Source of the DNA: a virus
Direction: 5' to 3' (one strand)
UHGV virus genome: UHGV-1343746
Length of the DNA: 64,000 nt
Position 1 is the stretch's first letter. Each line of letters starts with the position of its first letter. The translations under genes were made by a program, and so were the position numbers. Shown one piece after another: positions 16,191 to 64,000 of the stretch. The notes under the pieces were generated by a model. The model saw nothing but the letters and a program-made list of their open reading frames with translations. It was not told the origin of the DNA and made no database searches.

Positions 16191-16563
16191 ATTTCTTTTT
16201 AGTGCTTTGGGTATTTTGTTCTGTAATTGCTTGCAAAGCTGATACAGATTGTGCTAAGTTGTTAACACTGTCAGAGAACTTATCAAGGGTCTTAGTCAAC
16301 TTAGCGTTTTCTCCCTTAACATTCTCTAGCTGAACTTTCTGGTTCTCCATCCCTAATTGTAGGAGCTTCATATCAGATTGTAAGTCACGAATAGCTGAAT
16401 AGTTACCTTTTGAGTAACCATCCAACTGCTGTAACTTATTTGTGATAGACACTTCCTGTTTACCATCAGAGACCTGCATTGTAGTGTACATACCAATTAC
16501 ACTGAAAATACCTACAACGATTGCACCAATATTATTCTTAAAAGCATCTTCAAGCCACTTCAT
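16189..16563 (-). CDS. membrane-anchored coiled-coil protein (spanin- or holin-like)
   Basis: N-terminal transmembrane segment IGAIVVGIFSVIGMY followed by coiled coil. Confidence 0.35.
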   Translation of the reverse strand: MKWLEDAFKNNIGAIVVGIFSVIGMYTTMQVSDGKQEVSITNKLQQLDGYSKGNYSAIRDLQSDMKLLQLGMENQKVQLENVKGENAKLTKTLDKFSDSVNNLAQSVSALQAITEQNTQSTKKK

Positions 16564-16757
16564 TATTTCTCACCTTTAAAAGCCTTTTCCAAGGTATCTA
16601 CAAATTCATCATCAATAGGTGTATCTGTTTTACTCGCAAGGTATCTTGCAAGCTTAAAGAACACTTTTTCAATCATGTATTCACTGAGAAGAGAAAAAAG
16701 AAGCTTCCAAAAGAATGCCCCAAGGTTTTTCATGAGGATTGCTAGAATGGTTGGCAT
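16563..16757 (-). CDS. small hydrophobic protein
   Basis: 64 aa with hydrophobic N-terminus, downstream of tail fibres. Confidence 0.35.
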   Translation of the reverse strand: MPTILAILMKNLGAFFWKLLFSLLSEYMIEKVFFKLARYLASKTDTPIDDEFVDTLEKAFKGEK

Positions 16758-16843
16758 TTAATCACCTTACTTCTTGAGCCAAGATGGTGAGAATACCTAC
16801 TAAGAAATATTAACACCATCTTGACAGTTAGTCAACAAGGTAA

Positions 16844-38136: not shown

Positions 38137-39753
38137 TTATCGTCTTAGCCCCTGATATGGGTTACTCTTCATAATATCTGTATGAGCACCCATTGAAGGT
38201 GGCTTGAATAGTTTAACTTCGTTTAGACTGTTGAAAGCATCACTGGTAGCATCCACTTGGTCATCCTTAGTACGACCATCGCCACAAAAACCTTCTAGTT
38301 CTTGGAAATATGCTTCATTCCAAGAGCCTCTAACAATTTTGACAAGTCCTGCCTCAGAAGCAGCAGAGAAACCCGCAAAACGGGTGACTTTATCTTTATT
38401 TGTTGGTTTAGCTCTTGCTCGGAAACCTTTCTCAGCAAGTTTTCTAATAAGGGAGGTTGCGTAGGATTTACCAGCAGCGCCGGGGTCTTGAGGGATAAAA
38501 ATACCTGTGCGCTTACCATCACCTTCAGCAGTTTGGTTAATTTGTGTTTCAACTCCAGAAGGTCTATCTCTAAATCTTACTACGTTAATCACATAATAGC
38601 AACCATCTTTTTTAGATTTACCCATTTTAACACCTGCTGTCCAGTCAGGGTTAGGGTTAACCTCAGAAGGTAATGTTGCTGCTAAGTCCCATGCTCTTAC
38701 GTCAAATACGTCTGCTGGAACACTATCAACAATTTCACACCATTGCCTTTGCCAGTAGTTTGAACCTTCAGCACGAGCTTTCCAGTTACCAAAACGTAAA
38801 CGTGCAACGTTAACTGGTGTGTTGTTTTCTAATTTACCACGATACTTAGGTTCAAGGAAATCTAGAATAGGGTTGTCATCAATTGTACCGGAAATAAAGG
38901 TATATGTTTGAGGAATCTCAAGAGGGAACATTTCAAGAATTTTATCTCTATCCCAATCAGAAACCATGACACCATCATTCATAACATACCAACGAATCCT
39001 ACCGCACTTCTCTGGGTCTGGATATCCAGCATCATCTAGGAAAGGTTCTACCCAATCATAAATAAAGTGGTCTCTATCTGGGTTCATTGAGATTTTCATA
39101 TATGAGTCACCTTCAGCACCAGAACGTAAACGTGTCTGAAGATATGAAATCTGTGAAGCCGAGAAGTGTGTACCTTCGTCGAAATAAATAGCTGAGTATT
39201 CGATACCTTGGTGACCTTCTGAGTGTTTCTCAAGTTCCAAATAAGTAAACTTGATAGTTGCTCCAGAAGGGAAAGTGATAGTCATTTTCTGTTCATGTGG
39301 AACTCCACCAAACTTACCAAATAACTTCTTAGCCGCAGGCCATAGACCACCTTGTAACTGTGTTGTATTTCGACGGAAATAAACAGCATTATAGTTTGGG
39401 TCTTCAATGAACCTTAGTGAGTCCATTAATAGGGCAGCAGTCTTACCAGCACCAGCAGCACCACCATATAGTACCAAGTCAGCATTAGTGTTCAAGAATA
39501 CCTCTTGAGAGCCAGGCTGTGGAGCTACATAGTTCTTGTCAGTCATCAATTTAAAGATGAGTCTTACTTGGTCTGGGGTGTATCTTAATAAAGTCAGAAT
39601 TTGAGTTGGAAGGAATTTAGAGGGGTCTTTACCAAAGGATTTGATAATATCTTTTACTTCTTCAGAAAGCCCCAACTCACCTGCTAGGACTTTCCTTACA
39701 TCTTCCACTCGCTTCTGCTTAATAACATTTAAGTCCATTAAGCACCTCTGCAA
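38137..39753 (-). CDS. terminase large subunit
   Basis: 538 aa; Walker A-like LYGGAAGAGKTAAL near N-terminus, nuclease-sized C-terminal domain. Confidence 0.8.
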   Translation of the reverse strand: MQRCLMDLNVIKQKRVEDVRKVLAGELGLSEEVKDIIKSFGKDPSKFLPTQILTLLRYTPDQVRLIFKLMTDKNYVAPQPGSQEVFLNTNADLVLYGGAAGAGKTAALLMDSLRFIEDPNYNAVYFRRNTTQLQGGLWPAAKKLFGKFGGVPHEQKMTITFPSGATIKFTYLELEKHSEGHQGIEYSAIYFDEGTHFSASQISYLQTRLRSGAEGDSYMKISMNPDRDHFIYDWVEPFLDDAGYPDPEKCGRIRWYVMNDGVMVSDWDRDKILEMFPLEIPQTYTFISGTIDDNPILDFLEPKYRGKLENNTPVNVARLRFGNWKARAEGSNYWQRQWCEIVDSVPADVFDVRAWDLAATLPSEVNPNPDWTAGVKMGKSKKDGCYYVINVVRFRDRPSGVETQINQTAEGDGKRTGIFIPQDPGAAGKSYATSLIRKLAEKGFRARAKPTNKDKVTRFAGFSAASEAGLVKIVRGSWNEAYFQELEGFCGDGRTKDDQVDATSDAFNSLNEVKLFKPPSMGAHTDIMKSNPYQGLRR

Positions 39754-39759
39754 ATAGAA

Positions 39760-39966
39760 TTATTCAGAAACTTCTTCAGATTCCTGTTTAGGTTCTACAC
39801 CAAACTTTTCATCTACTAAATTAAGAAGTTTATCCATCGTTGCTTCTTGTGGGTTAATACCAGTTGCAACAATTAAACGTTCAGCCACAGCCATTACAGT
39901 TGCCTGAAGCATCTGAGCCTGTTTCTGAGTTTCATATAGTTCTTTGTAAACATTAGTCTCGTTCAT
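39760..39966 (-). CDS. hypothetical small protein upstream of terminase
   Basis: 68-aa acidic ORF with SD GGAGAA. Confidence 0.4.
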   Translation of the reverse strand: MNETNVYKELYETQKQAQMLQATVMAVAERLIVATGINPQEATMDKLLNLVDEKFGVEPKQESEEVSE

Positions 39967-40185: not shown

Positions 40186-40261
40186 TGGAGTATCGGAAGG
40201 GACTCGAACCCTCATAAACCTGTTTTGCAGACAGGCACATAACCATTTCTGACACCGACAC
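40186..40261 (-). tRNA. tRNA-Cys(GCA)
   Basis: manual fold: sense T-loop TTCGAGT, anticodon loop CTGCAAA, 7-bp acceptor stem, CCA encoded. Confidence 0.7.
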
Positions 40262-40267
40262 ATAATT

Positions 40268-40360
40268 TGGAGGAAGATACCAGACTTGAACTGGTACGCC
40301 GATTTCTCGGTTACTGGCAGTTTAGCAAACTGCTCCCTTACCTTTTAGGGTTAATCTTCC
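40268..40360 (-). tRNA. tRNA-Ser(GCU), long variable arm
   Basis: T-loop TTCAAGT; anticodon loop TTGCTAA; ~93 nt with variable-arm hairpin. Confidence 0.7.
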
Positions 40361-40361
40361 A

Positions 40362-41096
40362 TTATTTGTTCAGAGCTTCTTTCATCTCTGGAGTTGCGAT
40401 AGTATCAATCACACCAGTTTTACATGAATCATCAAACCAGCTTGGTAGAACATTCGCAAGGAAACCATTAATATTTGTTTTCAGGTATTCTGCAATCAGT
40501 GCTGCTTCATCTGCAATCATCTGAGTTACTTCATTAGCATATGCAGTAATCTTTGCAATACCCTCATTAATCGCTGTAACGGCCTGTGTAGCGAGTTCAG
40601 AGATTGTATCTAGTCCTTGGTCGATTGCATCTTGCAAATCGCTTAGAACGCTATTTACAGCGTCTATGGAGGTATTAATCAAATCCATCGCTTTATTACC
40701 GTACTCGGTAGCTACGCCCATGATACCGCTAAACGGTGTACATCCAACCTGTTCACCTGCTGCTCCCATAACGTTAGAGTAACCTTTAGCTACTTGCATA
40801 CGTTGTGAAAACTCATCTACAGACTTTTGTCCATACTCAGTGAGTGTACTTGTCGTTGAAGTTGTACTTCCAAGGCTTGTTGTGAAGCTTCCTAATAAGG
40901 CTGTTGTCAGTCCAGCAGCAACTAAAATCTGTTGTGTGGCTGGGTCTGTTACAGAACTAATTGAGTTAACTAATGATTGAGAGGCAGCTATAGTACCACC
41001 AAGAACTGCTGCACCAGTAATAAGAGGGTTTGAAAAACCATTACCAGTTTTAAGGAGATTAAAAATCTCTTTACTTTGTTCTGTCATCTCTTTCAT
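40362..41096 (-). CDS. Ala/Ser/Thr-rich protein with hydrophobic segments, embedded in tRNA cluster
   Basis: track ORF trimmed to ATG at 41096 because the listed N-terminus overlaps tRNA-Phe. Confidence 0.45.
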   Translation of the reverse strand: MKEMTEQSKEIFNLLKTGNGFSNPLITGAAVLGGTIAASQSLVNSISSVTDPATQQILVAAGLTTALLGSFTTSLGSTTSTTSTLTEYGQKSVDEFSQRMQVAKGYSNVMGAAGEQVGCTPFSGIMGVATEYGNKAMDLINTSIDAVNSVLSDLQDAIDQGLDTISELATQAVTAINEGIAKITAYANEVTQMIADEAALIAEYLKTNINGFLANVLPSWFDDSCKTGVIDTIATPEMKEALNK

Positions 41097-41114
41097 TATG
41101 CACCTATAAAGTTG

Positions 41115-41189
41115 GTAGCCCATCGGGATTTGAACCCTGTTCTCATGTTTTTCAGACACGCGCTTTAACCATATAAGCTAATTGAGCTA
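41115..41189 (-). tRNA. tRNA-Phe(GAA)
   Basis: T-loop TTCAAAT; anticodon loop CTGAAAA; acceptor TAGCTCA/TGGGCTA. Confidence 0.65.
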
Positions 41190-41195
41190 TTAAAT

Positions 41196-41272
41196 TGGGG
41201 TGACCTACGGGAATCGAACCCGTATAGACCATGTTCACAGCATGGGTCATTATCCATTTATGATAAGGCCAC
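41196..41272 (-). tRNA. tRNA-His(GUG)
   Basis: T-loop TTCGATT; anticodon loop CTGTGAA; CCA encoded. Confidence 0.7.
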
Positions 41273-41303
41273 ATTTAAGGACTCTCGTAAGAACCCTTAG
41301 AAG

Positions 41304-41379
41304 TGGCAGCAGTATAAGGATTTGAACCTTAATCTTTCAGCTTCAGAGGCTGGAGCATTGCCAGTTATGCTATACTGCT
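41304..41379 (-). tRNA. tRNA-Gln(CUG)
   Basis: T-loop TTCAAAT; anticodon loop CTCTGAA. Confidence 0.65.
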
Positions 41380-41385
41380 AATATT

Positions 41386-41456
41386 TGGTACTCCATATCG
41401 GATTCGAACCGATACATAACACAGATTTTAAATCTGGCCTCTCTGCCAATTGGAGT
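41386..41456 (-). tRNA. atypical tRNA-like gene, candidate anticodon UAA
   Basis: good T-arm and 6/7 acceptor stem, but only ~68 nt without CCA; anticodon region is palindrome CAGATTTTAAATCTG; truncated D-arm. Confidence 0.4.
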
Positions 41457-41466
41457 AATGGAGCAT

Positions 41467-41541
41467 TGGCGGGGGATGATGGAATTGAACCATCTTCTTC
41501 GATTTCAAAGACCGAGGTTTTAACCTTGTAAACTAATCCCC
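41467..41541 (-). tRNA. tRNA-Gln(UUG)
   Basis: T-loop TTCAATT; anticodon loop CTTTGAA; positions 1-72 mismatched. Confidence 0.6.
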
Positions 41542-41550
41542 TATTAAATT

Positions 41551-41627
41551 TGGTGCAGAATAGAGGATTCGAACCCCTAACAAACAACTTCGTAGATTGC
41601 TGTTCTATCCATTTGAACTAATTCTGC
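41551..41627 (-). tRNA. tRNA-Arg(ACG)
   Basis: T-loop TTCGAAT; anticodon loop CTACGAA; perfect acceptor stem. Confidence 0.7.
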
Positions 41628-41628
41628 A

Positions 41629-41871
41629 TTATCCGATAAGGACACCATAAAGTTTTAACTCTTCATTAGTGTCTCTTCTGCTTAAGACTGACTCTCTAAA
41701 ATCTTTAGCAATATTCTTTCGAGATTCCTGTCTAGCTTTCTTCTTATCTCTTCTGAGAAAGCGTCTACGATGGTCTGTACGCCACTTGTAGTAATCTTCT
41801 TCACCATCGTGAGAAGCGCAGCAGCCACAACTTGCAATTTCAACTTTACCATGTCTACCATAAGGCTTCAT
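41629..41871 (-). CDS. small basic Cys-containing protein embedded in tRNA cluster
   Basis: 80 aa, Arg/Lys-rich with CGCC...H cluster. Confidence 0.4.
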   Translation of the reverse strand: MKPYGRHGKVEIASCGCCASHDGEEDYYKWRTDHRRRFLRRDKKKARQESRKNIAKDFRESVLSRRDTNEELKLYGVLIG

Positions 41872-41887
41872 AGGAATCTCCTAAAAT

Positions 41888-41965
41888 TGGTGTTCCAAGA
41901 CGGATTCGAACCGTCACTAATACAAGGTTTGAGCTTGCATCCTCTACCAATTGGGATACTGGAAC
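41888..41965 (-). tRNA. tRNA with anticodon CAA (Leu-type) but short variable arm
   Basis: T-loop TTCGAAT; anticodon loop CTCAAAC; ~75 nt without CCA. Confidence 0.55.
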
Positions 41966-41966
41966 T

Positions 41967-42040
41967 TGGTACTCGCTGAAGGACTTGAACCTTCTTCACC
42001 AACTTGTAAGGATGGGGCTTTACCATATAAACTAAGCGAG
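41967..42040 (-). tRNA. tRNA-Val(UAC)
   Basis: T-loop TTCAAGT; anticodon loop CTTACAA. Confidence 0.6.
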
Positions 42041-42136
42041 CTTTGAAGAGGTCTGAAGCTGTGCCGCTAACTCAACTCCGTGGAATTTGTTACGGTCTTC
42101 AGTTGACTCAAGCGGTCTTTCACTTGACCTCAAAAT

Positions 42137-42212
42137 TGGTGCTCCCACAAGGATTCGAACCCTGATAAGTTGCTTACAAGGCAACCGTAATAGCCAATTA
42201 TACGATAAGAGC
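42137..42212 (-). tRNA. tRNA-Thr(UGU)
   Basis: T-loop TTCGAAT; anticodon stem GTTGC/GCAAC with loop CTTGTAA. Confidence 0.7.
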
Positions 42213-42218
42213 ATTGTT

Positions 42219-42293
42219 TGGAGCATCCAGAGGGAATCGAACCCTCAACCTCAGTTTGGAAGACTGTAATTTTCCCATTTAAACTATGGATGC
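42219..42293 (-). tRNA. tRNA-Gly(UCC)
   Basis: T-loop TTCGATT; anticodon loop CTTCCAA; perfect acceptor stem. Confidence 0.7.
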
Positions 42294-42299
42294 ACTAAT

Positions 42300-42375
42300 T
42301 GGTGGAGAAGCAGGGAATTGAACCCTGTACTTAAGTTTGCAAAACTTATGTTTTAACCATGTAAACTACATCCCC
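42300..42375 (-). tRNA. tRNA-Ala(UGC)
   Basis: T-loop TTCAATT; anticodon loop TTTGCAA; G3-U70 wobble pair present. Confidence 0.7.
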
Positions 42376-42381
42376 ATTGTT

Positions 42382-42457
42382 TGGTACAGGTGGAGTGAAT
42401 TGAACCCATCGTCTTACTGATTAAGAGTCAGCCGCATAACCATTTTGCTACACCTGC
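42382..42457 (-). tRNA. tRNA-Lys(CUU)
   Basis: anticodon loop CTCTTAA; acceptor stem good; T-stem weakly paired. Confidence 0.55.
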
Positions 42458-42464
42458 ATTAATT

Positions 42465-42542
42465 TGGTAGGAGACAAGGGATTCGAACCCTCAAACACCA
42501 ACTTCTAAGGATGGTAGGTTTACCAATTACCGTCAATCTCCC
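42465..42542 (-). tRNA. tRNA with anticodon UAG (Leu-type) but short variable arm
   Basis: T-loop TTCGAAT; anticodon loop CTTAGAA; ~75 nt without CCA. Confidence 0.55.
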
Positions 42543-42797
42543 ATTAAATCTTTGTAGAGAACTGCTAAGACGCCAAAGCAACAATGGTATCAAATGCCTT
42601 AACAATTCTCTAAAAAGACCTATTGGCCTTTGCGTAGTCTTCTTTAATCCGGTGACTAGAACCTTTGGAGAGCTTGATATTATCTCTTCTCCGTGACACC
42701 TACTAGGTGCTTTGTCAGTGCCGTGTACGCCAATACACGAAGAGGAAACCTGAAACACTTGCCCGAACAGCGAGTCTCAGCTTTAAATCTTATTAGG

Positions 42798-42881
42798 CGG
42801 TAGATAAAGGAGTCGAACCCTCACCGTATCTCTACAATGGCAACTGTTTTCAAGACAGTTTGGCTTCCATTAGCCGCTACC
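42798..42881 (-). tRNA. tRNA-Ser(UGA), long variable arm
   Basis: T-loop TTCGACT; anticodon stem ACTGT/ACAGT with loop CTTGAAA; ~84 nt, no CCA encoded. Confidence 0.6.
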
Positions 42882-42898
42882 TACCCCTAATAAGACTT

Positions 42899-42981
42899 TG
42901 GCATGGGACGGAGGATTCGAACCCCTTTGAGTAAGTTTTGGAGGCTTACGCACATGCCTTAGTGTCTTAACATCGTCCCAT
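42899..42981 (-). tRNA. tRNA, long (about 83 nt), anticodon unresolved (CCA/Trp candidate)
   Basis: T-loop TTCGAAT; perfect acceptor match GTCCCAT; internal fold ambiguous. Confidence 0.5.
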
Positions 42982-43146
42982 ACTATAATTCGAAGCTTAC
43001 CCTGTTATCTCAACACTGTCAAGCTTCTTCTCAGATTATTTACATGTTCTGGAAAACATGAGATACAGACCACCTCCTTATGAGATTGACTTTTTCAAGT
43101 CAATGCGGAGACCCATAAAGGTCGTCATAGTAATCTGCTAACTAAC

Positions 43147-43223
43147 TGGCACACCCTACAGGATTCGAACCTGTAACTGACGGTTTAGAAGACCGTTGCT
43201 CTATCCGTTTGAACTAAGGGTGC
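43147..43223 (-). tRNA. tRNA-Arg(UCU)
   Basis: T-loop TTCGAAT; anticodon stem ACGGT/ACCGT with loop CTTCTAA. Confidence 0.7.
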
Positions 43224-43500
43224 ATTAACATTTTAAAGAGCACTCATTGCATTTAAGCCAAGCCCCATAAGGGATGCTCTTTAGAATGTTGCCCACTTTA
43301 TTAATCATACCGTGGGCTAGTACGCCAAATTCTTTAACAGGGAGTTGGAATACCCTGCTGGTGTTTAGCCTATTAAGCTACTGCCAGAAAAACATTATCG
43401 TTTGCATTTATTTTTAAGTTTTTAAAATAGACGCTACGCTAACGAAAACTAAGGTTATCTTAAAGTGGTCACATCTGAATGTCAACAACTTTATGAAATT

Positions 43501-43576
43501 TGGTACTGGTAGGTGGAATCGAACCACCGATATTCCCTTATCAGGGGAGTGTTATAACCTTCTTAACTATACCAGC
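43501..43576 (-). tRNA. tRNA-Ile(GAU)
   Basis: T-loop TTCGATT; anticodon loop CTGATAA. Confidence 0.65.
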
Positions 43577-43578
43577 AT

Positions 43579-43655
43579 TGGAGGTTCAGGTGGGAATCGA
43601 ACCCACATTCATAGGGCTTATGAAACCCTTGCATTACCTTATCTGCGACTGAACC
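43579..43655 (-). tRNA. tRNA-Met(CAU)
   Basis: T-loop TTCGATT; anticodon loop TTCATAA with GGG/CCC stem; perfect acceptor stem. Confidence 0.65.
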
Positions 43656-55608: not shown

Positions 55609-55616
55609 AACTATAC

Positions 55617-55640
55617 AGCCCCTTAATTGGGGCTTTTTAT
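55617..55640 (+). terminator. rho-independent terminator
   Basis: AGCCCC-TTAATT-GGGGCT followed by TTTTTAT. Confidence 0.65.
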
Positions 55641-55655
55641 TGAGTAAAATTTACG

Positions 55656-55679
55656 AAATTTATAATTTTTATAAAATTT
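55656..55679. repeat. AT-rich palindrome AAATTTATAATTTTTATAAAATTT
   Basis: near-identical copy at 56119-56143. Confidence 0.5.
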
Positions 55680-55763
55680 GGGATTCACTCCGTTCATCTT
55701 GGGTCACCATGATATGTGATAAAATATCTATACCCTTCTAAACACCCTCTCTAAGCATCATCT

Positions 55764-55987
55764 CTATATAGTATTATATAGTATCTATATAGCCTCTTAG
55801 TACCTAAATAGTGCTCTCTATATAGCCCTCTATAAAGCCTTCTAAGCCTACCATTAATCAACCATATACAATCACCTTCCTAACCTCTTCCTAGCCCCTT
55901 AGAAGCTCCTATAGCCATCTTAATCTCTAGGTAAACGATAGTACCCTATATAGCAGAATCACTAGGTATTACTAAGCCTCTATATAG
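55764..55987. repeat. cluster of about six CTATATAG palindromic octamers
   Basis: CTATATAG at 55764, 55785, 55818, 55946, 55980 plus CTATAAAG variants. Confidence 0.55.
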
Positions 55988-56118
55988 ACTGTTATATAAC
56001 ACTAAACAGGTATTCCCTGTAAAGGCTTATCCTACAAGGTCTAACACGGTACTAACAAGGTCTCTTATAAGCCTGTTAATTCCTGTTTTATATAAGATAG
56101 TGTATAGATAGTTATTCA

Positions 56119-56143
56119 GAATTATAAAATTTTTATAAAATAG
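56119..56143. repeat. AT-rich palindrome, second copy
   Basis: GAATTATAAAATTTTTATAAAATAG. Confidence 0.5.
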
Positions 56144-56220
56144 ACTAGGTAGTGTTTATTTAGGGGTCTTTGGAGAATCTGAAAAATATCTACAGAGGGT
56201 GTATATCTGCTTGGTAGCCC

Positions 56221-56740
56221 TTAACAGCCCTGTAACATCCCCTTTGCAGTTTATTAAAATATCATTAACAAGCTCTTAACAACTCTCTCAAGCCTTTAAC
56301 ATCTCTTCAAAGTTCTTAACAGTTTCTTAACAGAACTAACAAGGGCTTAACAAGTCTGTAACATTACTAACAAGAGTCTAACAAGTTGCTTATAAGTTGC
56401 TAAATAGTTAAATCTTAAGAGTTATTTTGTTAAGATAATTAACAAGATGCTAACAAGTTCTAAACCTTTTTAACAAGCTATTAACATGGTCACTATCTCT
56501 TGGTCTATAGTTCCCTTCCCTTCTTAGTGATTCTCTTAAAAGCCCTCTTAAAAGCTCTGTATAGCTCTGTATAGCCTCTTCTAAGCTTCTCCCTAGTAAC
56601 TACACCCCAACTACCTGTATAGCTCTTTATAGGGCTTTCTAGGGGCTTATACAGGGACTTCAAAGAGTCTAACAAGCTTTTAACATACCTCTAACAAGGA
56701 TTTAACTGAGGCTTAACAAGTCTCGCTAGGGGCTAACAAG
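56221..56740. repeat. iteron-like array: about 20 copies of (C)TAACA(AG)
   Basis: CTTAACAAG/CTAACAAG/TTAACAT repeated at roughly 10-12 or 20-bp spacing. Confidence 0.55.
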
Positions 56741-56810
56741 TCCATAATAAGCATAACTATGTAGCATTTGTTAAGATTTTGTTAAGAGAATGTAAAGGGG
56801 GCTAACTTTT

Positions 56811-56865
56811 ACGTTACTTTTACGTTACTTTTACGTTACTTTTAAGCATCTTTTACGTTACTTTG
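56811..56865. repeat. tandem 11-mer ACGTTACTTTT, three perfect copies plus one displaced
   Basis: ACGTTACTTTT ACGTTACTTTT ACGTTACTTTT aagcatc TTTTACGTTACTTTG. Confidence 0.7.
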
Positions 56866-57191
56866 AAGACTCCATAACATTCTTTAAAGCTATTATCAAG
56901 CCCCTGTTTAACCATTCACAAGATTCTATCCAGCTTATAAGCTTACTCCCTTATAAGATTCTTTTAAGGCTCTAGAAAGCTCTATAAAGGGCTTTTAAGA
57001 AGTGGTTAATATGATTGCTTAAGATGAGATGATAAGCCCGTATAGAGCGTTATAGAGCGTTTTAGGGATTGCCCTTCCCTTTCGGGTTATGGGCTTATAT
57101 TTAAGTGGATTTGATAAGAGGATATAGAGTAAGCTATAGAGTTATTATTCTAAATGTATGGGATAGATTCTAGGAAGGTTTCTTTATAGAC

Positions 57192-57215
57192 GTAAAAAGC
57201 CCCATCTAAGGGGCT
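57192..57215 (-). terminator. rho-independent terminator for minus-strand small-gene block
   Basis: minus-strand AGCCCC-UUAGAU-GGGGCU followed by UUUUUAC. Confidence 0.6.
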
Positions 57216-57256
57216 GTAAAGGTGTCTGGGGCTATTTGCCCCGTTGCGGCGACTTG

Positions 57257-57508
57257 TTAGTTATTGAAGCCGTCAACTTCATAGTAAAGCGTGATAAGAG
57301 AATCACCCCAATAGTAAGAGGATACGCCATCCTTTAAGACTTCCTGTTTAGTTTCTTTCCAGAATGTTTCCGATGGGTTATAGTCCTGAATAGTTGCTTT
57401 TAGACACATATCAACCATGCCGAAAGCATCACCAGTGCCAACCATATCGAACTTAACATCTAATACATGGAAGCCAAAATTGTTAACAGTTGCGCGGATA
57501 GTAGCCAT
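57257..57508 (-). CDS. hypothetical small protein
   Basis: 83-aa ORF; conserved GGAGAATCTGAAAATG initiation region. Confidence 0.45.
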   Translation of the reverse strand: MATIRATVNNFGFHVLDVKFDMVGTGDAFGMVDMCLKATIQDYNPSETFWKETKQEVLKDGVSSYYWGDSLITLYYEVDGFNN

Positions 57509-57573
57509 TTTCAGATTCTCCAGTTTAGGAATTTAGGTTAGTGGGGAAGTCTCCCTCCCCGTTGAAAGTAATA
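57509..57573 (-). promoter_or_regulatory. upstream hairpin cassette, class II
   Basis: minus-strand GGGGAGGGAGACUUCCCC hairpin plus CUAAACUGGAGAAUCUGAAAAUG. Confidence 0.5.
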
Positions 57574-57837
57574 TTAATTCATTGCTGCATAAGTTGCAAG
57601 TCTTTTTTCATTGTATTTTGTAAGAATCTCACAAGATAAAACGTCATACTTTGCAACGGCTTCAGATTTAGTTAAACCGAAATGGCTTACAATTTCACCA
57701 TTCATGAATCCGACTACTTCATAAGATTCTGCGATGATTTCACCGTTGAACCAATCACTTTCAATACGTTTGCAAAGTTGGATATCTTCTTTGTCAGTAC
57801 CGATTTGTAACAGGATAGTGATTTCTTGATTATTCAT
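57574..57837 (-). CDS. hypothetical small protein
   Basis: 87-aa ORF preceded by class II cassette. Confidence 0.45.
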   Translation of the reverse strand: MNNQEITILLQIGTDKEDIQLCKRIESDWFNGEIIAESYEVVGFMNGEIVSHFGLTKSEAVAKYDVLSCEILTKYNEKRLATYAAMN

Positions 57838-57897
57838 TTTCTAGTCTCCAGTTTAGGATTGTTGGGGAAGGTCATTCCCTCCCCGTTGATAAGTACT
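57838..57897 (-). promoter_or_regulatory. upstream hairpin cassette, class II
   Basis: GGGGAAGGTCATTCCCTCCCCGTTGA on plus strand. Confidence 0.5.
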
Positions 57898-58425
57898 TTA
57901 CAGATTTATGATGATTTCGTCAAGGGAATTTTCTAAGTTTTTTAAAGATTGTTCGTAAAGCCTAATTCCCCTACTTAATGCTTCCCCTAACGTAATTTTA
58001 AATACAGTTGTTGGGTAGTCACTTGTAAAGATGTTTTCCACTTCATAGAGTGGGTATTGTTGGTTACCCGTTCCCATAGCATACATACCTGTATAGTGAA
58101 TTGCAATAAAAAGATTATGGGACTTAATAGAGCGCTCATAAGCCATTTTAAAGCGGTTTAACTCGTTTTTAGTTGCCTTAATAGCCATTTCGTGAATTTC
58201 TGCGACTATAGCCATATAATCATTCAGAATGAGAGAAATAGCCCCCATAAAGTTGTTGGCTGTTACCGCTTTTACATTTGGTCGGTGTACATAAAACTTC
58301 TTACCTTCCCCTTTTGTGATAACTGCAAAAACTTTGCTCTTTAAGGTAAATTCCCAAGTATCTTTACAAGGCTTGCTCATCACTTCACGGCTACGGATTG
58401 CATTAACAGCATTAAACTTATTCAT
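57898..58425 (-). CDS. hypothetical protein
   Basis: 175-aa ORF preceded by class II cassette. Confidence 0.45.
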   Translation of the reverse strand: MNKFNAVNAIRSREVMSKPCKDTWEFTLKSKVFAVITKGEGKKFYVHRPNVKAVTANNFMGAISLILNDYMAIVAEIHEMAIKATKNELNRFKMAYERSIKSHNLFIAIHYTGMYAMGTGNQQYPLYEVENIFTSDYPTTVFKITLGEALSRGIRLYEQSLKNLENSLDEIIINL

Positions 58426-58489
58426 TCTAGATTCTCCAGTTTAGGAATTTTGTTTAGTGGGGAAGTTTCCCTCCCCGTTGATGAATACT
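58426..58489 (-). promoter_or_regulatory. upstream hairpin cassette, class II
   Basis: GGGGAAGTTTCCCTCCCCGTTGATGAATACTTTAC on plus strand. Confidence 0.5.
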
Positions 58490-58630
58490 TTACTTGTTTT
58501 GATTCTGCATTGCAAGTAGTTTTTTATCAAAAACTTTATCTGAGATTTCACCAATGATGAGCATTGCTAATGGCAACACAACAGAAACAATCATACCGCA
58601 AAGGATAGGGTTTTTAATGATATCTAACAT
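58490..58630 (-). CDS. small hydrophobic protein (46 aa), absent from ORF track
   Basis: ATG at 58630 carries the same conserved initiation region; predicted single transmembrane segment. Confidence 0.4.
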   Translation of the reverse strand: MLDIIKNPILCGMIVSVVLPLAMLIIGEISDKVFDKKLLAMQNQNK

Positions 58631-58826
58631 TTAGTGATTCTCCAGTTTAGGAAGTTGCCTTTTGAAGATACTATATAGATATGATTAGACCTTTGCAAGT
58701 ACTTTTTACGCTTATCTATAAAGAATCTATTAAGTTAATCCCTTTTAGATAAACCCCCTCGAACAAAGTTACACTTGTCAAGGGGCATTGTCAATAGTTT
58801 TTCAAAAGATTTTTATAAGTTGTTGA

Positions 58827-59168
58827 TTAGCTTATAAAGATTTTTTCTGGCTTAACATAGGTTAATGACTGTTTTTTAAGCAAATCAGACCAAATGAGCG
58901 CGGCAATGTGACTATATCCCTTTTCTCTTAACTCCTGCATAGCTGATTTGCGAGTTTCGAAACGTGTAGCATAGTATTCAGTGTTAAGGGTAGTTTTATT
59001 CCCTTCATTGTCAACATGTACAATCTGCATCACTTGAAAGGGGCTTACATCTTCTCCCCTGTTCCATTGCTCAAAGTACTTGAGACACTGCATAGGTTTC
59101 ATTTTGTCGTTAACTTGGGTAGACCATGACGAATTTTCTTTATCGGTGATAATTGTTACATAGGCCAT
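58827..59168 (-). CDS. hypothetical protein
   Basis: 113-aa ORF preceded by class I cassette. Confidence 0.45.
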   Translation of the reverse strand: MAYVTIITDKENSSWSTQVNDKMKPMQCLKYFEQWNRGEDVSPFQVMQIVHVDNEGNKTTLNTEYYATRFETRKSAMQELREKGYSHIAALIWSDLLKKQSLTYVKPEKIFIS

Positions 59169-59253
59169 TTTCAGATTCTCCAGTTTAGGATTGTTGGTAA
59201 AGCTCTTTCTCTGGGGCTTAAGATACTAGCTTTTAAACCCCATGTAAAGCACT
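59169..59253 (-). promoter_or_regulatory. upstream hairpin cassette, class I
   Basis: plus-strand GGTAAAGCTCTTTCTCTGGGGCTTA...AAACCCCATGTAAAGCACTTTA. Confidence 0.5.
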
Positions 59254-59451
59254 TTAATAAATTCTATCCATCAGATTATTCACGGCCATAATTGCATTAT
59301 CTTTGAAGTGTGGATGACTGCTATTCTGTGAGAATAGTATTTCTCCATTGTATACTATTTTTAGGTCTATCTTTGAACCTTCCATGTTAAGGTTACACTC
59401 TACACCTTTTAAACACCACAAGGTAGAAAGTTTTTGCATCAGTGATAACAT
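59254..59451 (-). CDS. hypothetical small protein
   Basis: 65-aa ORF preceded by class I cassette. Confidence 0.4.
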   Translation of the reverse strand: MLSLMQKLSTLWCLKGVECNLNMEGSKIDLKIVYNGEILFSQNSSHPHFKDNAIMAVNNLMDRIY

Positions 59452-59542
59452 TTTAGATTCTCCAGTTTAGGATTGTTGGTAAAGCTCTTTATCTGGGGCT
59501 TATCTTATCTAACTATAAACCCCATGTAAAGCACTTTATTAG
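59452..59542 (-). promoter_or_regulatory. upstream hairpin cassette, class I
   Basis: GGTAAAGCTCTTTATCTGGGGCTTATCTTATCTAACTATAAACCCCATGTAAAGCACTTTATT. Confidence 0.5.
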
Positions 59543-59764
59543 TTATTTGTAGTAATAATATGTAAACTCATTTATCAGGCTTCCAGCCTCATCATTATAC
59601 TGCTTATGACTAGCCAGATAACCGCCATTAGCTAGAATTTCATCAATCAACTTTTTAGCGTCATCATTGGGAATTCTAACAGGGTTATTAAACGGTTGTA
59701 AATAGGTACGACGAACATTTGAGAATTTAAAATCAATGGTTTTTACGTTGAGGACTTGCAACAT
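59543..59764 (-). CDS. hypothetical small protein
   Basis: 73-aa ORF preceded by class III cassette. Confidence 0.45.
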   Translation of the reverse strand: MLQVLNVKTIDFKFSNVRRTYLQPFNNPVRIPNDDAKKLIDEILANGGYLASHKQYNDEAGSLINEFTYYYYK

Positions 59765-59848
59765 TTTTGAATCTCCAGTTTAGGATTGTTGGGGCTTCTA
59801 ACTTACCCCGTTGATGAGTACTCTACTGGTTTGCGTTTTCAGTGTCAA
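59765..59848 (-). promoter_or_regulatory. upstream hairpin cassette, class III
   Basis: GGGGCTTCTAACTTACCCCGTTGATGAGTACTCTAC. Confidence 0.5.
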
Positions 59849-60079
59849 CTACTTTTCTATAAGAATTTCATAATCACCATTCACACTATCAAAGTAAATG
59901 CCATAATCATCTTCTGATTTATAGTAGCACTGTATATCATCCGATGCTGGGTAGTCTTGCCTTGCTATCTGACAGGCAACAATAGCATTATTTTCGCTAC
60001 CTGTAAACTCTTCTAAACCTTTAAAGTTGCATTGTGAACCATTGCAGATAGATAGAATAAGATAGATTGTTGTAAGCAT
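59849..60079 (-). CDS. small secreted Cys-containing protein
   Basis: 76 aa; hydrophobic N-terminus MLTTIYLILSICNGSQC. Confidence 0.4.
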   Translation of the reverse strand: MLTTIYLILSICNGSQCNFKGLEEFTGSENNAIVACQIARQDYPASDDIQCYYKSEDDYGIYFDSVNGDYEILIEK

Positions 60080-60142
60080 CTTTTAAGCCTCTTGTAAGCC
60101 CCTATGCGGGGCTTTTCTAGTGAACTGGTATGATTCTATGGT

Positions 60143-60700
60143 TTATGCTGTTAAGTCGCTTATAGCCGTTTCTGTTACGTTGAATTGCATTGTGTCAAAG
60201 ATATCACAATATACATTGCTCATCTCATCGCTACGTTGGATTATTGCCACAATGTTGCGTAATTCATCCGGTATATAACCTAAGTTCCTATTATTCAGGT
60301 TAGGGACAAAGAAAGGCGCATACATAGCATTAAATTCAGTTGTGTAAACCTTTTTAATCCATTCTTTATCGAAATACTCTGTAAAGCTTGCTACGTCGCT
60401 CATGTTCTCACAGCTCCAGTCATCTTGTAATTCATCTTCTGGAATATCAAGTTCCAAGATAACAAGTTTTTGTGACTTCATTTGATAGGCTGCTGTAATG
60501 CTTGCACTGTCAAGCGCGTTTTTAATACCTTCATCTATGATTTGTTCGTCATCCAGATTTTCTACATCATAGAACTTGCTAACAGGGTAGACATAAAAAC
60601 ATCCATCCATATCAGAGCAATTCCAGACTCCTGATGGTTTATCACCGCCATTCATAAGGTTTACAAAGTTTTCTTGTGTAGTACCATGAAAGCATTTCAT
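60143..60700 (-). CDS. hypothetical acidic protein
   Basis: 185-aa ORF preceded by class I cassette. Confidence 0.45.
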   Translation of the reverse strand: MKCFHGTTQENFVNLMNGGDKPSGVWNCSDMDGCFYVYPVSKFYDVENLDDEQIIDEGIKNALDSASITAAYQMKSQKLVILELDIPEDELQDDWSCENMSDVASFTEYFDKEWIKKVYTTEFNAMYAPFFVPNLNNRNLGYIPDELRNIVAIIQRSDEMSNVYCDIFDTMQFNVTETAISDLTA

Positions 60701-60784
60701 TTTAGATTCTCCAGTTTAGGATTGTTGGTAAAGCTCTTTATCTGGGGCTTATCTTATCTAATTATAAACCCCATGTAAAGCACT
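60701..60784 (-). promoter_or_regulatory. upstream hairpin cassette, class I
   Basis: near-identical to 59452..59542. Confidence 0.5.
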
Positions 60785-61033
60785 TTATTTAGTTTTCTTT
60801 GTAAAGATTAGTTTAACGGCAACAGTTGGTAACTCTTCAATACTTGTGAACAAAGTCACTTTTTGAGTCTTGACATTATAGCCATACTTTGAACCATAAG
60901 CCGTAAAACGGTTTACAATGTAACTGTAAGTTTTTGCAGTGTTATCTGGCATATGGTATAAAAACGGCTTGCCAAGGTTATCAAGTTGTGTTAAGAGTCG
61001 GCAAGTGTCAGGGATATTCAACATATTAAACAT
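60785..61033 (-). CDS. hypothetical small protein
   Basis: 82-aa ORF preceded by class III cassette. Confidence 0.45.
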   Translation of the reverse strand: MFNMLNIPDTCRLLTQLDNLGKPFLYHMPDNTAKTYSYIVNRFTAYGSKYGYNVKTQKVTLFTSIEELPTVAVKLIFTKKTK

Positions 61034-61118
61034 TTTCAGATTCTCCAGTTTAGGATTGTTGGGGCTTCTAACTTACCCCGTTGATGAGTACTCTACTACT
61101 ATGCTTTTGCAATGTCAA
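61034..61118 (-). promoter_or_regulatory. upstream hairpin cassette, class III
   Basis: identical core to 59765..59848. Confidence 0.5.
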
Positions 61119-61526
61119 TCAAATCTCTGAATAAATTGCATCGCAGATTTCACGGAAAACTTCCACCGGTAAGTTACGCTGTAACCATGTTGCAAAGAAA
61201 TCAGCAATTGCAAAGTTTGCATCAAAATCAACACATAGCCACACTTTAACAGCAAATCTAAACATTTTCAAGTCAAGTTCTTTATTCATTACTTTTGACT
61301 TTGACAGCATTTCCTTCATCTCATATTGAGCACCGTCAATTATAGCTCCTGCTGCTACATCTTGCAAGGATTCTTTAAGCTGTTTTGTGTCTACTACTGC
61401 GCCCTGAATTTTACCGATGATATTATGTAGTGTTTCGTCTGGTGCTGCTGATGTTACAATGTTGATGCGGTTAATGGTCAAACGTGCTTTCAAAATTGCA
61501 ACTTCTTTGTGATTAACATTAGTCAT
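61119..61526 (-). CDS. hypothetical protein
   Basis: 135-aa ORF preceded by class I cassette. Confidence 0.45.
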   Translation of the reverse strand: MTNVNHKEVAILKARLTINRINIVTSAAPDETLHNIIGKIQGAVVDTKQLKESLQDVAAGAIIDGAQYEMKEMLSKSKVMNKELDLKMFRFAVKVWLCVDFDANFAIADFFATWLQRNLPVEVFREICDAIYSEI

Positions 61527-61615
61527 TTTCTAGTCTCCAGTTTAGGTTAGTTTTAGATAAATCTCTTTATCTGGGGCTATCTTAGCAACTTGATAACCCC
61601 ATGTAAAGCAATTTA
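61527..61615 (-). promoter_or_regulatory. upstream hairpin cassette, class I variant
   Basis: TCTTTATCTGGGGCTATCTTAGCAACTTGATAACCCCATGTAAAGCAATTTATT. Confidence 0.5.
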
Positions 61616-61888
61616 TTAGACTAAATACAATTTTTTACCACTAACAATAATGTAACTTACGCCGCTATTACTGTAAACATCTTGATAAATTCTGCGTAAC
61701 TTTCCAAGGTATCGAACTTTCCAAGATGTAGGAATTTTCTTTCCATATCCTGTGGCGGTTTTTTGTAGACCTGCTACCTGCCAATCTAATAGGTGCTGTT
61801 CTGCTCTTAACTCTTCAAAGTTTAATACACCGTCTATATAGTGTTTTAAAGTTACGTTCAAAGTTCGACCGTCATTAGTAGTATACAT
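61616..61888 (-). CDS. hypothetical small protein
   Basis: 90-aa ORF preceded by class III cassette. Confidence 0.45.
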   Translation of the reverse strand: MYTTNDGRTLNVTLKHYIDGVLNFEELRAEQHLLDWQVAGLQKTATGYGKKIPTSWKVRYLGKLRRIYQDVYSNSGVSYIIVSGKKLYLV

Positions 61889-61947
61889 TTTCAGATTCTC
61901 CAGTTTAGGATTGTTGGGGCTTCTATCTTGCCCCGTTGATGAATACT
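61889..61947 (-). promoter_or_regulatory. upstream hairpin cassette, class III
   Basis: GGGGCTTCTATCTTGCCCCGTTGATGAATACTTTAC. Confidence 0.5.
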
Positions 61948-62295
61948 TTACTTGTTTTGATTCTGCATTGCAAGCTCTTTTTTATTAATTTCTTGCGCTA
62001 TCACGATATAATAATCTTTCAGGTTTATATCTTGAATTGACTCAAGAAGTATGTCATAATCACTGATTAATTTAAAATCACCGTCTAGGATGTTATCAAT
62101 CCGGTATGTTTCTGCTTTGAATCGAAAGCTCATCTCTAAGCGTTTCAATTGTTCTAAGCTTAAACGCTCTAGAAAGCCCCGTACAAGGTTTATTTTTAAA
62201 TCCCTTGTAAGTGCCTTATTAGCTATACTGTGCGCTTGTAAGGCTTTATAGAGCGCCATAATAGAGATAAAAATTGCAACGTATGTGATTAACAT
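61948..62295 (-). CDS. hypothetical protein with N-terminal hydrophobic segment
   Basis: 115 aa; MLITYVAIFISIMALY. Confidence 0.4.
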   Translation of the reverse strand: MLITYVAIFISIMALYKALQAHSIANKALTRDLKINLVRGFLERLSLEQLKRLEMSFRFKAETYRIDNILDGDFKLISDYDILLESIQDINLKDYYIVIAQEINKKELAMQNQNK

Positions 62296-62585
62296 TTGTT
62301 TTTACCTTTGTGGAATAGTTTACCAGTGTGACTAATTTCATAAGAGTCTATCATATCTTTTGTGGATTTAATAGATGATTTATTAGCATTATCATAGATA
62401 TCTATCTGAAGCAATGGTTTTTTGTATTCCTTACAAAAGTTCCATACACAAATCACAACTTCCCTTTTGTCAATCTTTCCGTGATACCATTCCACAGATT
62501 CACTTTGACGTCGCATAGATTCAATAAACTGAATGTTATTTAATAACTGACTCAATTTAGTTCTAACGTTTGCGGCAATAAACAT
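62289..62585 (-). CDS. hypothetical small protein
   Basis: 98-aa ORF preceded by class I cassette. Confidence 0.45.
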   Translation of the reverse strand: MFIAANVRTKLSQLLNNIQFIESMRRQSESVEWYHGKIDKREVVICVWNFCKEYKKPLLQIDIYDNANKSSIKSTKDMIDSYEISHTGKLFHKGKNKC

Positions 62586-62669
62586 TTTAGATTCTCCAGT
62601 TTAGGATTGTTGGTAAAGCTCTTTATCTGGGGCTATCTTAGCAACTTGATAACCCCATGTAAAGCACTT
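62586..62669 (-). promoter_or_regulatory. upstream hairpin cassette, class I
   Basis: same core as 61527..61615. Confidence 0.5.
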
Positions 62670-63182
62670 TTAGATATTAAAGATATTCATAACAGAGTCT
62701 TTCAAGGCTTCTAAACGTTCCATTACTTCAGATTCTCCATCGGAGTTAGAAACTTCCTCTTCTAATCGTGAATCTAAATCTTCCCCGTCAAGATAACACC
62801 AATCGAAACCATAAGCAAGTGAAAAGCTATTTAATACCGTATTACCTTCTTTATCTTCTACCTTTGCAAATAGCACATAGCTGTTAGCTTCTAAATCTCT
62901 TTGTAATTCATCTTGTAAGCTCTTGTAAGCCTCTATAGATGGATTTTCGCGGCCTTGTTTAGCATAATCACTCATCAATTGGGAAAGGCTGTAATGCTGT
63001 GGAATTGCATATTTGTACCCGTTACGCTCTGGATTTTTAAGTTTGATTGTAACCCCGCCTTTGTGCTCATCGGTAAACTTCCAATTTTCCACACAATGGG
63101 ATGCTTCACAAATATTAACAGCTTCATAGATGATAGTGAATTTTTCTTTTTGAACTTCAAAGGTAGCTTCAACGTATGACAT
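62670..63182 (-). CDS. hypothetical acidic protein
   Basis: 170-aa ORF preceded by class I cassette. Confidence 0.45.
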   Translation of the reverse strand: MSYVEATFEVQKEKFTIIYEAVNICEASHCVENWKFTDEHKGGVTIKLKNPERNGYKYAIPQHYSLSQLMSDYAKQGRENPSIEAYKSLQDELQRDLEANSYVLFAKVEDKEGNTVLNSFSLAYGFDWCYLDGEDLDSRLEEEVSNSDGESEVMERLEALKDSVMNIFNI

Positions 63183-63274
63183 ATTAAGATTCTCCAGTTT
63201 AGGACTATTGGTTAGTAAAGCTCTTTATCTGGGGCTTATACTAGCAACTTATAAACCCCATGTAAAGCACTTTA
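63183..63274 (-). promoter_or_regulatory. upstream hairpin cassette, class I
   Basis: GGTTAGTAAAGCTCTTTATCTGGGGCTTATACTAGCAACTTATAAACCCCATGTAAAGCACTTTATC. Confidence 0.5.
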
Positions 63275-63532
63275 TCAGATTAAATTGTCAGTTAATGACA
63301 AGTGCATTTTATAACCTTTCTTCGTGTAGACATTAGTTCTACCGATTGCCCTTACACCTTTGAAAAGGTCATAGGAGCTACGTTTTAAAGTAATTTCCTT
63401 ATCACATTTTACGCCCCATCTTACAGCAGATTCTTTTCCGTTGTCAACCACTTTACCATTTAATTTTTTAGCAGTTGCGCGAGCGTCATCACGAGATTTT
63501 GCAGATACAATGATGTTTTTGATAGTAGCCAT
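63275..63532 (-). CDS. hypothetical small basic protein
   Basis: 85-aa ORF preceded by class I cassette. Confidence 0.45.
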   Translation of the reverse strand: MATIKNIIVSAKSRDDARATAKKLNGKVVDNGKESAVRWGVKCDKEITLKRSSYDLFKGVRAIGRTNVYTKKGYKMHLSLTDNLI

Positions 63533-63623
63533 TTTTGATACTCCAGTTTAGGTTATTGTTTGGTAAAGCTCTTTATCTGGGGCTTATCTTATCTAACTAT
63601 AAACCCCATGTAAAGGACTTTAT
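63533..63623 (-). promoter_or_regulatory. upstream hairpin cassette, class I
   Basis: near-identical to 59452..59542. Confidence 0.5.
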
Positions 63624-63941
63624 TTAGTTAATTTTGAAAACTGTAACGTAGCCGTCACTACCAATAGTTTGAGATACTCCAGCTTTCTCTACATCATACC
63701 CCATTTTATCAAGATGGTACATTGCATCTTCATACCCATATTTACCGCCTTGATAGCGTCTTTTTTCACATCTTATCACAGTTTTACCACGTCCTGCAAT
63801 AGCATTTATGATAGCTTTTTCACCGGATAATGTACCGTCAAGCATAGTAGCTTTGTAGTGGTTAATACGGTTACCATTAACATCATACTTAAAATTGTAA
63901 GCGTGAACAACAATTATTTTTCCTTTGAAGTTTTCTTTCAT
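63624..63941 (-). CDS. hypothetical protein
   Basis: 105-aa ORF. Confidence 0.45.
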   Translation of the reverse strand: MKENFKGKIIVVHAYNFKYDVNGNRINHYKATMLDGTLSGEKAIINAIAGRGKTVIRCEKRRYQGGKYGYEDAMYHLDKMGYDVEKAGVSQTIGSDGYVTVFKIN

Positions 63942-64000
63942 AGTTTCCTCTAAGATACTACGAAAGTTTTCTTTGTTGATAAATTTAGGCGCACGATATT

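Follow-up and report, generated by a model that had tools for sequence, protein, structure and literature searches.

The DNA analyzed here is a 64,000-nt stretch (64 kb, hereafter the window) of the virus genome UHGV-1343746, in which positions 55641–57191 form a 1.5-kb non-coding region crowded with short repeats. The source of the window is an Ounavirinae myophage (Felix O1-like, Mooglevirus-type), and Megablast detected the region in about 255–257 Ounavirinae genomes, with the closest DNA matches in Shigella phages Sf13, Sf17, and Sf18 (~94%) and Citrobacter Mooglevirus phages (~90%), and matches of 73–85% in Felixounavirus and Suspvirus. The initial annotation, made from the sequence alone, had set three readings of the region side by side, namely replication origin, packaging site, or genome terminus. 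In our analysis, the terminus and packaging part of this proposal stood while the origin part did not, and the region is very probably a concatemer junction, made up of a right-end flank, one copy of a ~590-bp direct terminal repeat (DTR), and a left-end flank.

The region is placed between the lysozyme-side genes on the + strand and, on the − strand, a block of small genes of early type, and its GC content is 33–36%, compared with 39% for the whole window. No coding signal was detected between 55641 and 57191, where the overlapping open reading frames (ORFs) encode only 33, 36, and 56 aa, and reading frames there would be broken by the 1-, 11-, and 22-bp indels that occur among relatives, in agreement with the earlier statement that the region has no credible ORF. 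Its closure by terminators on both sides was likewise confirmed. On the left, a rho-independent terminator on the + strand at 55609–55640 (stem 55617–55634 followed by a T-run) closes the + strand cluster of lysozyme-side late/small genes, and a terminator is annotated at the orthologous site in the records of Michonne and wV8; on the right, a rho-independent terminator on the − strand at 57193–57221 (stem 57215–57198, then a T-run) closes the cluster of small early-type genes. The two terminators are convergent, facing inwards from either side of the non-coding region, and together constitute a 29-nt inverted repeat. The count of five terminator-like sites compares with an expectation of 1.0. 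The genes next to the convergent terminators are the outermost ones, and their transcription runs towards the respective chromosome end.

Several deposited records (e.g., ESh20, E9, pEC-M719-6WT.1, and Michonne gp111) annotate 2–8 "hypothetical proteins" inside the non-coding junction. The ORFs annotated there are not conserved from record to record and are broken by indels, and they are probably over-annotation. Taken at face value, such short ORFs, together with the high conservation of the sequence, would speak for a transcribed regulatory region that yields a non-coding RNA or small peptides. Sigma-70-like sites, however, occur at chance level (8 vs. 6.7 ± 3.2 in shuffles), the terminators on both sides face inwards, and the region gave no Rfam match at E ≤ 1, in addition to the frame-breaking indels and the variation of the annotated ORFs among records, which makes this explanation very unlikely.

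All the repeat families described in the initial annotation were recovered where they had been reported, at frequencies far above chance and with slight corrections to some counts. The AT-rich palindrome TTTTTATAAAAT is duplicated as claimed, occurring at 55666 and 56130 and nowhere else within the 64 kb. The octamer family was also found, but its count of about six was reduced to five exact copies of CTATATAG in the region, out of seven in the whole window. About 20 (C)TAACAAG repeats at helical spacing had been proposed; the array and its 11-bp phasing were confirmed, with the exact TAACAAG sequence present in 13 copies in the region (+ strand only, with 12 lying within 56213–56802) and the TAACA core in 21 copies within 56213–56802, at spacings of 9, 11, 20, 22, and 33 bp. 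Whole-window shuffles gave 16.7 copies of TAACAAG per 64 kb on the two strands together, which scales to an expectation of ~0.15 for 590 bp. At a period of 11 bp, Fourier power reached 5.58 in the array and 5.85 in the right flank, both above every background window of the same size (mean 1.9, standard deviation 0.75, maxima 5.55 and 5.41). The tandem array of the 11-mer ACGTTACTTTT, also described earlier, comprises three exact and two degenerate units, and was called by Tandem Repeats Finder at 56805–56864 with 5.5 copies. The further short motifs CTGTATAGC (three copies) and TATAGAGCGT (two copies) are repeated in this region and occur nowhere else in the window.

Comparison with related phages, one of the checks proposed in the initial annotation, revealed DTR orthologs with the same boundaries. 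The DTRs of several relatives have been mapped previously: that of UAB_Phi87 is 608 bp as determined by Bal31 digestion and run-off sequencing (PMC4837284), that of Pr103Blw is 581 bp as determined by PhageTerm (PMC8303462), that of Ro111lw is 613 bp (PMC6454146), and those of E9 and I14.1 were identified by PhageTerm (PMC11737134). For UAB_Phi87, we used the DTR sequence from the supplement of the paper (printed in Figure S1B of PMC4837284), which aligns over its full length to window positions 56211–56793 with 74% identity; the GenBank record JN225449.1, which starts in the tRNA cluster, was rejected as a marker of the physical ends of this phage. In Pr103Blw, the first and last 581 bp are annotated as the DTR, and both copies were verified to be identical. 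This DTR maps to 56213–56802, starting with GGTAGCCCTTAACA and ending with AAGGGGGC in the orientation of the window, and its start and end strings are present at window positions 56213 and 56802. Used as a query, 56213–56802 mapped (positions 1–590) to the first 580/581 bp of E9 and I14.1, to the first 628/651 bp of NBEco004 and NBEco005, and to the last 588 bp of GE_vB_7A, and it matched the 618-bp feature labeled "DTR" in UAB_69 with a deviation of at most 2 nt at each end. The end of the E9 record and the start of the NBEco004 record agree with these limits to the base, and the limits in Pr103Blw, E9, I14.1, NBEco004, NBEco005, GE_vB_7A, and UAB_69 all lie at most 2 nt from 56213–56802. 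In BLAST searches, several records break exactly inside the region query, and further records end ~30 nt or less from the right boundary. The DTR length across the group is 581–628 bp, varying partly by steps of 11 or 22 bp.

The limits of the TAACA array and the mapped DTR limits of the relatives agree within about 2–9 nt at each end. Since 56213–56802 matches the DTRs mapped in relatives, what had been called an iteron-like array is best read as the terminal repeat, and the whole region as a concatemer junction. The proposal of a genome terminus or packaging junction is thus strongly supported, as the array coincides with a DTR that was mapped experimentally or by PhageTerm in related phages. 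By sequence comparison, orthology shows the identity and the limits of the predicted repeat as well as how strongly the non-coding block is conserved as a whole. No second copy of the repeat was found within the 64-kb window, a single copy being what is expected of a collapsed junction.

The same coincidence bears on the possibility that the region is, or also contains, a replication origin, in which TAACAAG would serve as initiator iterons and the AT-rich palindromes as the unwinding element. As in iteron-type origins (plasmid or lambdoid ori), multiple phased direct repeats stand here beside AT-rich sequence, including two conserved palindromes, and the low GC content and the very strong conservation of the non-coding sequence point in the same direction. 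In T7, moreover, minor origins and promoters adjoin the ends of the genome; an origin can accordingly be present alongside a junction. However, the limits of the array are those of the terminal repeat, and the presence of the array is therefore already explained without an origin. Its units are 5–8-nt cores at 9–11-bp spacing, unlike iterons of 17–22 bp. A DnaA-box consensus scan revealed no enrichment in the region, which holds one box with one mismatch, the window total being below chance; nor is there an adjacent initiator gene, the flanking genes encoding small proteins of unknown function. Cumulative GC skew, which the initial annotation had also proposed to examine, is at a local maximum here rather than a minimum, and all its sign changes in the window coincide with gene-strand switches; the skew thus follows the direction of transcription, carries no origin signal, and cannot discriminate between the readings. 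The suggestion that iterons plus AT-rich palindromes are the signature of an origin was not supported by these data, and we consider an origin at this locus improbable.

The proposed concatemer junction is laid out in three parts. The left non-coding flank (55641–56212) would correspond, in virion DNA, to the unique sequence that borders one of the two terminal repeats on its inner side. It contains the AT-rich palindromes at 55666 and 56130, the CTATATAG cluster at 55764–55987, and a near-invariant 41-nt block at 56036–56076, and ends with ...GTATATCTGCTT (56201–56212) directly before the DTR start; TATATCTGCTT, which is single-copy in the window, directly adjoins the DTR start in Pr103Blw, E9, UAB_69, and phiEa21-4. 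The DTR ortholog itself (56213–56802, 590 bp) is present in one copy, as in a concatemer or a circular assembly, and is built for the most part from phased (C)TTAACA(AG) units, 21 direct and three inverted. Direct orientation prevails along most of the repeat, with one inverted unit in the middle of the array (56428), whereas the final ones before the right boundary (56769 and 56780) are inverted, so that both mature DNA tips would show the motif in similar polarity. The right DTR boundary element TTGTTAAGATTTTGTTAAGAGAATGTAAAGGGGGC (56768–56802) contains inverted TAACA units at 11-bp spacing and ends at the predicted cut site, with GGGGGC before the cut and TA after it. This element is near-invariant in Mooglevirus, Felixounavirus, and Suspvirus and recognizable in phiEa21-4, and AAGGGGGCTA within it is single-copy in the window. 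The right non-coding flank (56803–57191) would border the repeat at the opposite end of virion DNA in the same way, likewise as unique sequence; it has the ACGTTACTTTT 11-mer array (56805–56864) at its start and contains the doubled TATAGAGCGT (57041–57060) and conserved blocks.

Variation among relatives was observed in and around the DTR. The tandem array at the right DTR boundary has about five 11-nt units here and two in Michonne, and FO1a, with a copy number above 10, carries a far longer array of roughly 33-nt units at the aligned position; this array behaves as a copy-number-variable spacer. Small palindromic insertions are found at differing sites in the non-coding region of UAB_69, SUSP2, wV8, and Michonne, aligning to window positions 55625, 56400–56430, 56890, and 57070–57200, and none is present in the window. 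The insertions are of two types, GGGATTGGTAACAATACCAATT (22 bp) and a sequence similar to GGATTCGATAGAATCTATC with a length of about 25 bp, and they resemble very small mobile elements of the hairpin kind.

The sequences flanking the two DTR boundaries are conserved, reading ...GTATATCTGCTT up to the left boundary and ...AATGT(T/A)AAGGGGGC up to the right one, with TA following. In phiEa21-4, an Erwinia phage of the genus Kolesnikvirus, we found a syntenic 1.2-kb non-coding gap with both boundary motifs, and from these motifs alone the DTR was predicted at 17028–17466 (439 bp). At least 10 independent Kolesnikvirus records (SPARTY, vEam_PM_6, vEam_PM_21, vEam_PM_27, vEam_W_28, vEam_S_24, MM7, Roscha1, Hena2, and Prophecy) start or end at this 439-bp segment, within 0–9 nt, and most of the ten match it at two places each. 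The coincidence of these record ends with the predicted segment indicates that the boundary rule generalizes across the subfamily. The phiEa21-4 DTR resembles Felix O1-type records only in patches, roughly a third of its length aligning at about 70% identity, and it contains the same motif in a similar spacing series, comprising 14 direct and seven inverted units in 439 bp. In the right flank of phiEa21-4 (16472–17027), a different phased motif, TTAGAA(G), occurs in 12 copies at a spacing of 10–12 bp, compared with 21 in 50 kb, which suggests a second, lineage-specific putative binding array beside the conserved TTAACA array. For two other Erwinia phages, the start of the record reportedly corresponds to PhageTerm position 1; of these, Fifi106 starts in coding-looking sequence and Fifi318 just before the TerL operon, and no repeat was found at either record start.

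The freely varying copy number of the 11-mer array beside the right boundary and the palindromic insertions that come and go among relatives would be compatible with a neutral explanation, in which the repeats are slippage by-products in a gene-free spacer or remnants of decayed mobile elements, without sequence-specific function. The comparison of nine phages of three genera argues otherwise. The non-coding block is 78–81% identical to that of Felixounavirus/Suspvirus, whereas the adjoining coding DNA is 54–77% identical and the left flanking protein only about 50% identical across relatives, which means that the region is more conserved than its neighboring genes; invariant alignment columns amount to 61% in the left flank and 57% in the right flank. 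Within the DTR, invariant columns make up 88% of the TAACA cores and 54% of the rest of the repeat (Fisher p = 5e-13), while the spacers between the cores vary freely, and several indels in the array measure 11 or 22 bp, so that the units keep register. Moreover, the motif, its spacing, and the boundary sequences persist in Kolesnikvirus despite the patchy nucleotide similarity of the DTR. A purely neutral history of the repeats is accordingly highly improbable. Because the cores are conserved over the spacers and phased at 11 bp, the array suggests a putative protein-binding array, probably for packaging.

The large terminase TerL is encoded at 38137–39753; it is T4-like, matches phrog_979 and Terminase_6N/6C, and is 69% identical to TerL of phiEa21-4. 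TerL of the Felix O1 type falls in a DTR cluster (PMC4837284). Immediately upstream of TerL, where a small terminase would be expected, lies a conserved 68-aa ORF (39760–39966, − strand) that matches phrog_4397 (unknown function) and in which PHROGs and Pfam recognized no DNA-binding family. No match to a TerS family was obtained among the ORFs upstream of TerL with PHROGs and Pfam, the 265-aa ORF there belonging to DUF7217. This ORF (40362–41159) interrupts a cluster of 26 tRNAs, typical of the group, that is located on the − strand at 40186–45351, just upstream of TerL.

With respect to the mechanism, the terminase would cut between ...CTGCTT and GGTAGCCC on one side of the repeat and between ...AAGGGGGC and TA on the other. 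The repeat would be duplicated by DNA synthesis, as is reportedly the case for the terminal repeat of T7-type DTR phages (Chung et al. 1990, cited in PMC4925675), and each virion DNA would thus carry copies at both ends, which may permit end-to-end recombination or annealing to give concatemers. The phased TTAACA units would bind a protein conserved in the subfamily, which would assemble on the junction or wrap it, the likeliest candidates being an unrecognized packaging factor resembling a small terminase or an end-binding protein.

Several points weigh against this interpretation. We infer the termini of this phage from orthologs at 74–94% identity, and the published end positions differ by 2–8 nt between methods. 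The single copy of the repeat in the window fits a circular or concatemer-type assembly and is not itself proof of duplication. The conservation statistic for the TAACA cores derives from nine related sequences, aligned in a way that favors the pairing of repeats with repeats, and the TTAACA motif could not be linked to any DNA-binding protein, whether a small terminase or another.

Beyond the concatemer junction itself, a broader proposal can be made only tentatively. From Felix O1-like phages to Kolesnikviruses, the Ounavirinae terminal repeat may conceivably be more than redundant DNA, namely a set of ~20 phased, oriented TTAACA sites on which a putative subfamily-wide protein polymerizes, although we regard this as doubtful. 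The array-binding protein could then be a cryptic small terminase or a factor that binds or protects the chromosome end, and the strongly conserved flanks might additionally hold a replication origin. If this were true, the recognition array would be the terminal repeat itself, representing a packaging or end-handling architecture.

On the other side of the right terminator, a conserved cassette recurs ~10 times between the genes of the early-type small-gene block at 57200–64000 (− strand). It combines a ribosome-binding site and start context (+ strand reading: AGATTCTCCAGTTTAGGATTGTTGG) with a hairpin, TTATCTGGGGCT...CCCCATGTAAAG, and corresponds to the direct repeats of 57 bp described between Felix O1 early genes (PMC3185647).

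The DTR of this phage group has already been published and annotated in relatives, and the feature is of a known kind; our findings do not overturn the current understanding. As far as our limited searches show, the phased TTAACA architecture, its conservation in four genera, and the boundary motifs have not been discussed in the literature. Figure S1B of PMC4837284 prints the internal motif array of UAB_Phi87 without discussing it, a full-text literature search for TAACAAG returned primer noise only, a comparative Felixounavirus paper is silent on repeats and termini, and termini of Felixounavirus are absent from the BASEL and Danish wastewater papers. Phages of the Felix O1 type find wide use in diagnostics and biocontrol of Salmonella and Escherichia coli, and many deposited genomes have been opened arbitrarily, some of them carrying spurious ORFs across the junction. 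The boundary motifs, which are kept across four genera and correctly predicted the Kolesnikvirus ends, provide a simple sequence rule for finding the true genome ends. As the predicted terminal repeat, 56213–56802 delimits a compact cis-acting region of use in engineering and in studies of packaging, and the TTAACA array offers a handle for finding the DNA-recognition component of this terminase system.

Among known systems, the junction of T7 and T3 is said to contain a terminal repeat of 160–230 bp, with the short-repeat arrays SRL and SRR beside it and pac elements in the adjoining unique DNA. The remark in the initial annotation that short-repeat arrays are found next to T7-like concatemer junctions proved to be a good lead. 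The likeness to T7 and T3 lies in unit-length genomes with a non-permuted short terminal repeat, one copy of it at the junction, and non-coding short-repeat arrays at that place. A passage in PMC4925675 describes the T7-type terminal repeat as needed for concatemer formation and end maturation. In contrast to T7 and T3, the repeat here is 3–4 times longer and is itself built of a motif array, TerL is T4-like (Terminase_6N/6C) without a recognized TerS upstream of it, and the phage is a myovirus that is not known to have a phage RNA polymerase, so the transcription-dependent mechanism of T7 is not simply transferable to it. Phased repeats as terminase recognition sites are represented by the R-sites of lambda cosB, which act with IHF, and by the pacL/pacR boxes of SPP1. 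As in these two systems, short, helically phased, and oriented motifs flank the terminase cut site, which suggests oligomer assembly or DNA wrapping; unlike them, which have 3–7 units over 100–200 bp, the present repeat has ~20 units over 590 bp, and a consensus scan of the region found no canonical IHF sites. An analogy can also be drawn with the herpesvirus "a" sequence, which a passage in PMC10763189 describes as a terminal direct repeat of reiterated DR arrays flanked by pac1 and pac2. Both are terminal repeats at a junction that consist largely of short tandem reiterations with conserved cleavage/packaging signals at their edges and a copy number that varies among strains, but the lineages are unrelated and the sequences, sizes, and enzymes differ. 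The closest counterparts are the orthologous DTRs of the Felix O1-like phages UAB_Phi87, Pr103Blw, Ro111lw, and UAB_69, which share the boundaries, the flanking non-coding blocks, and the position between gene clusters with the repeat described here, and from which the window differs in length and in being only 74–78% identical to the Felixounavirus examples.

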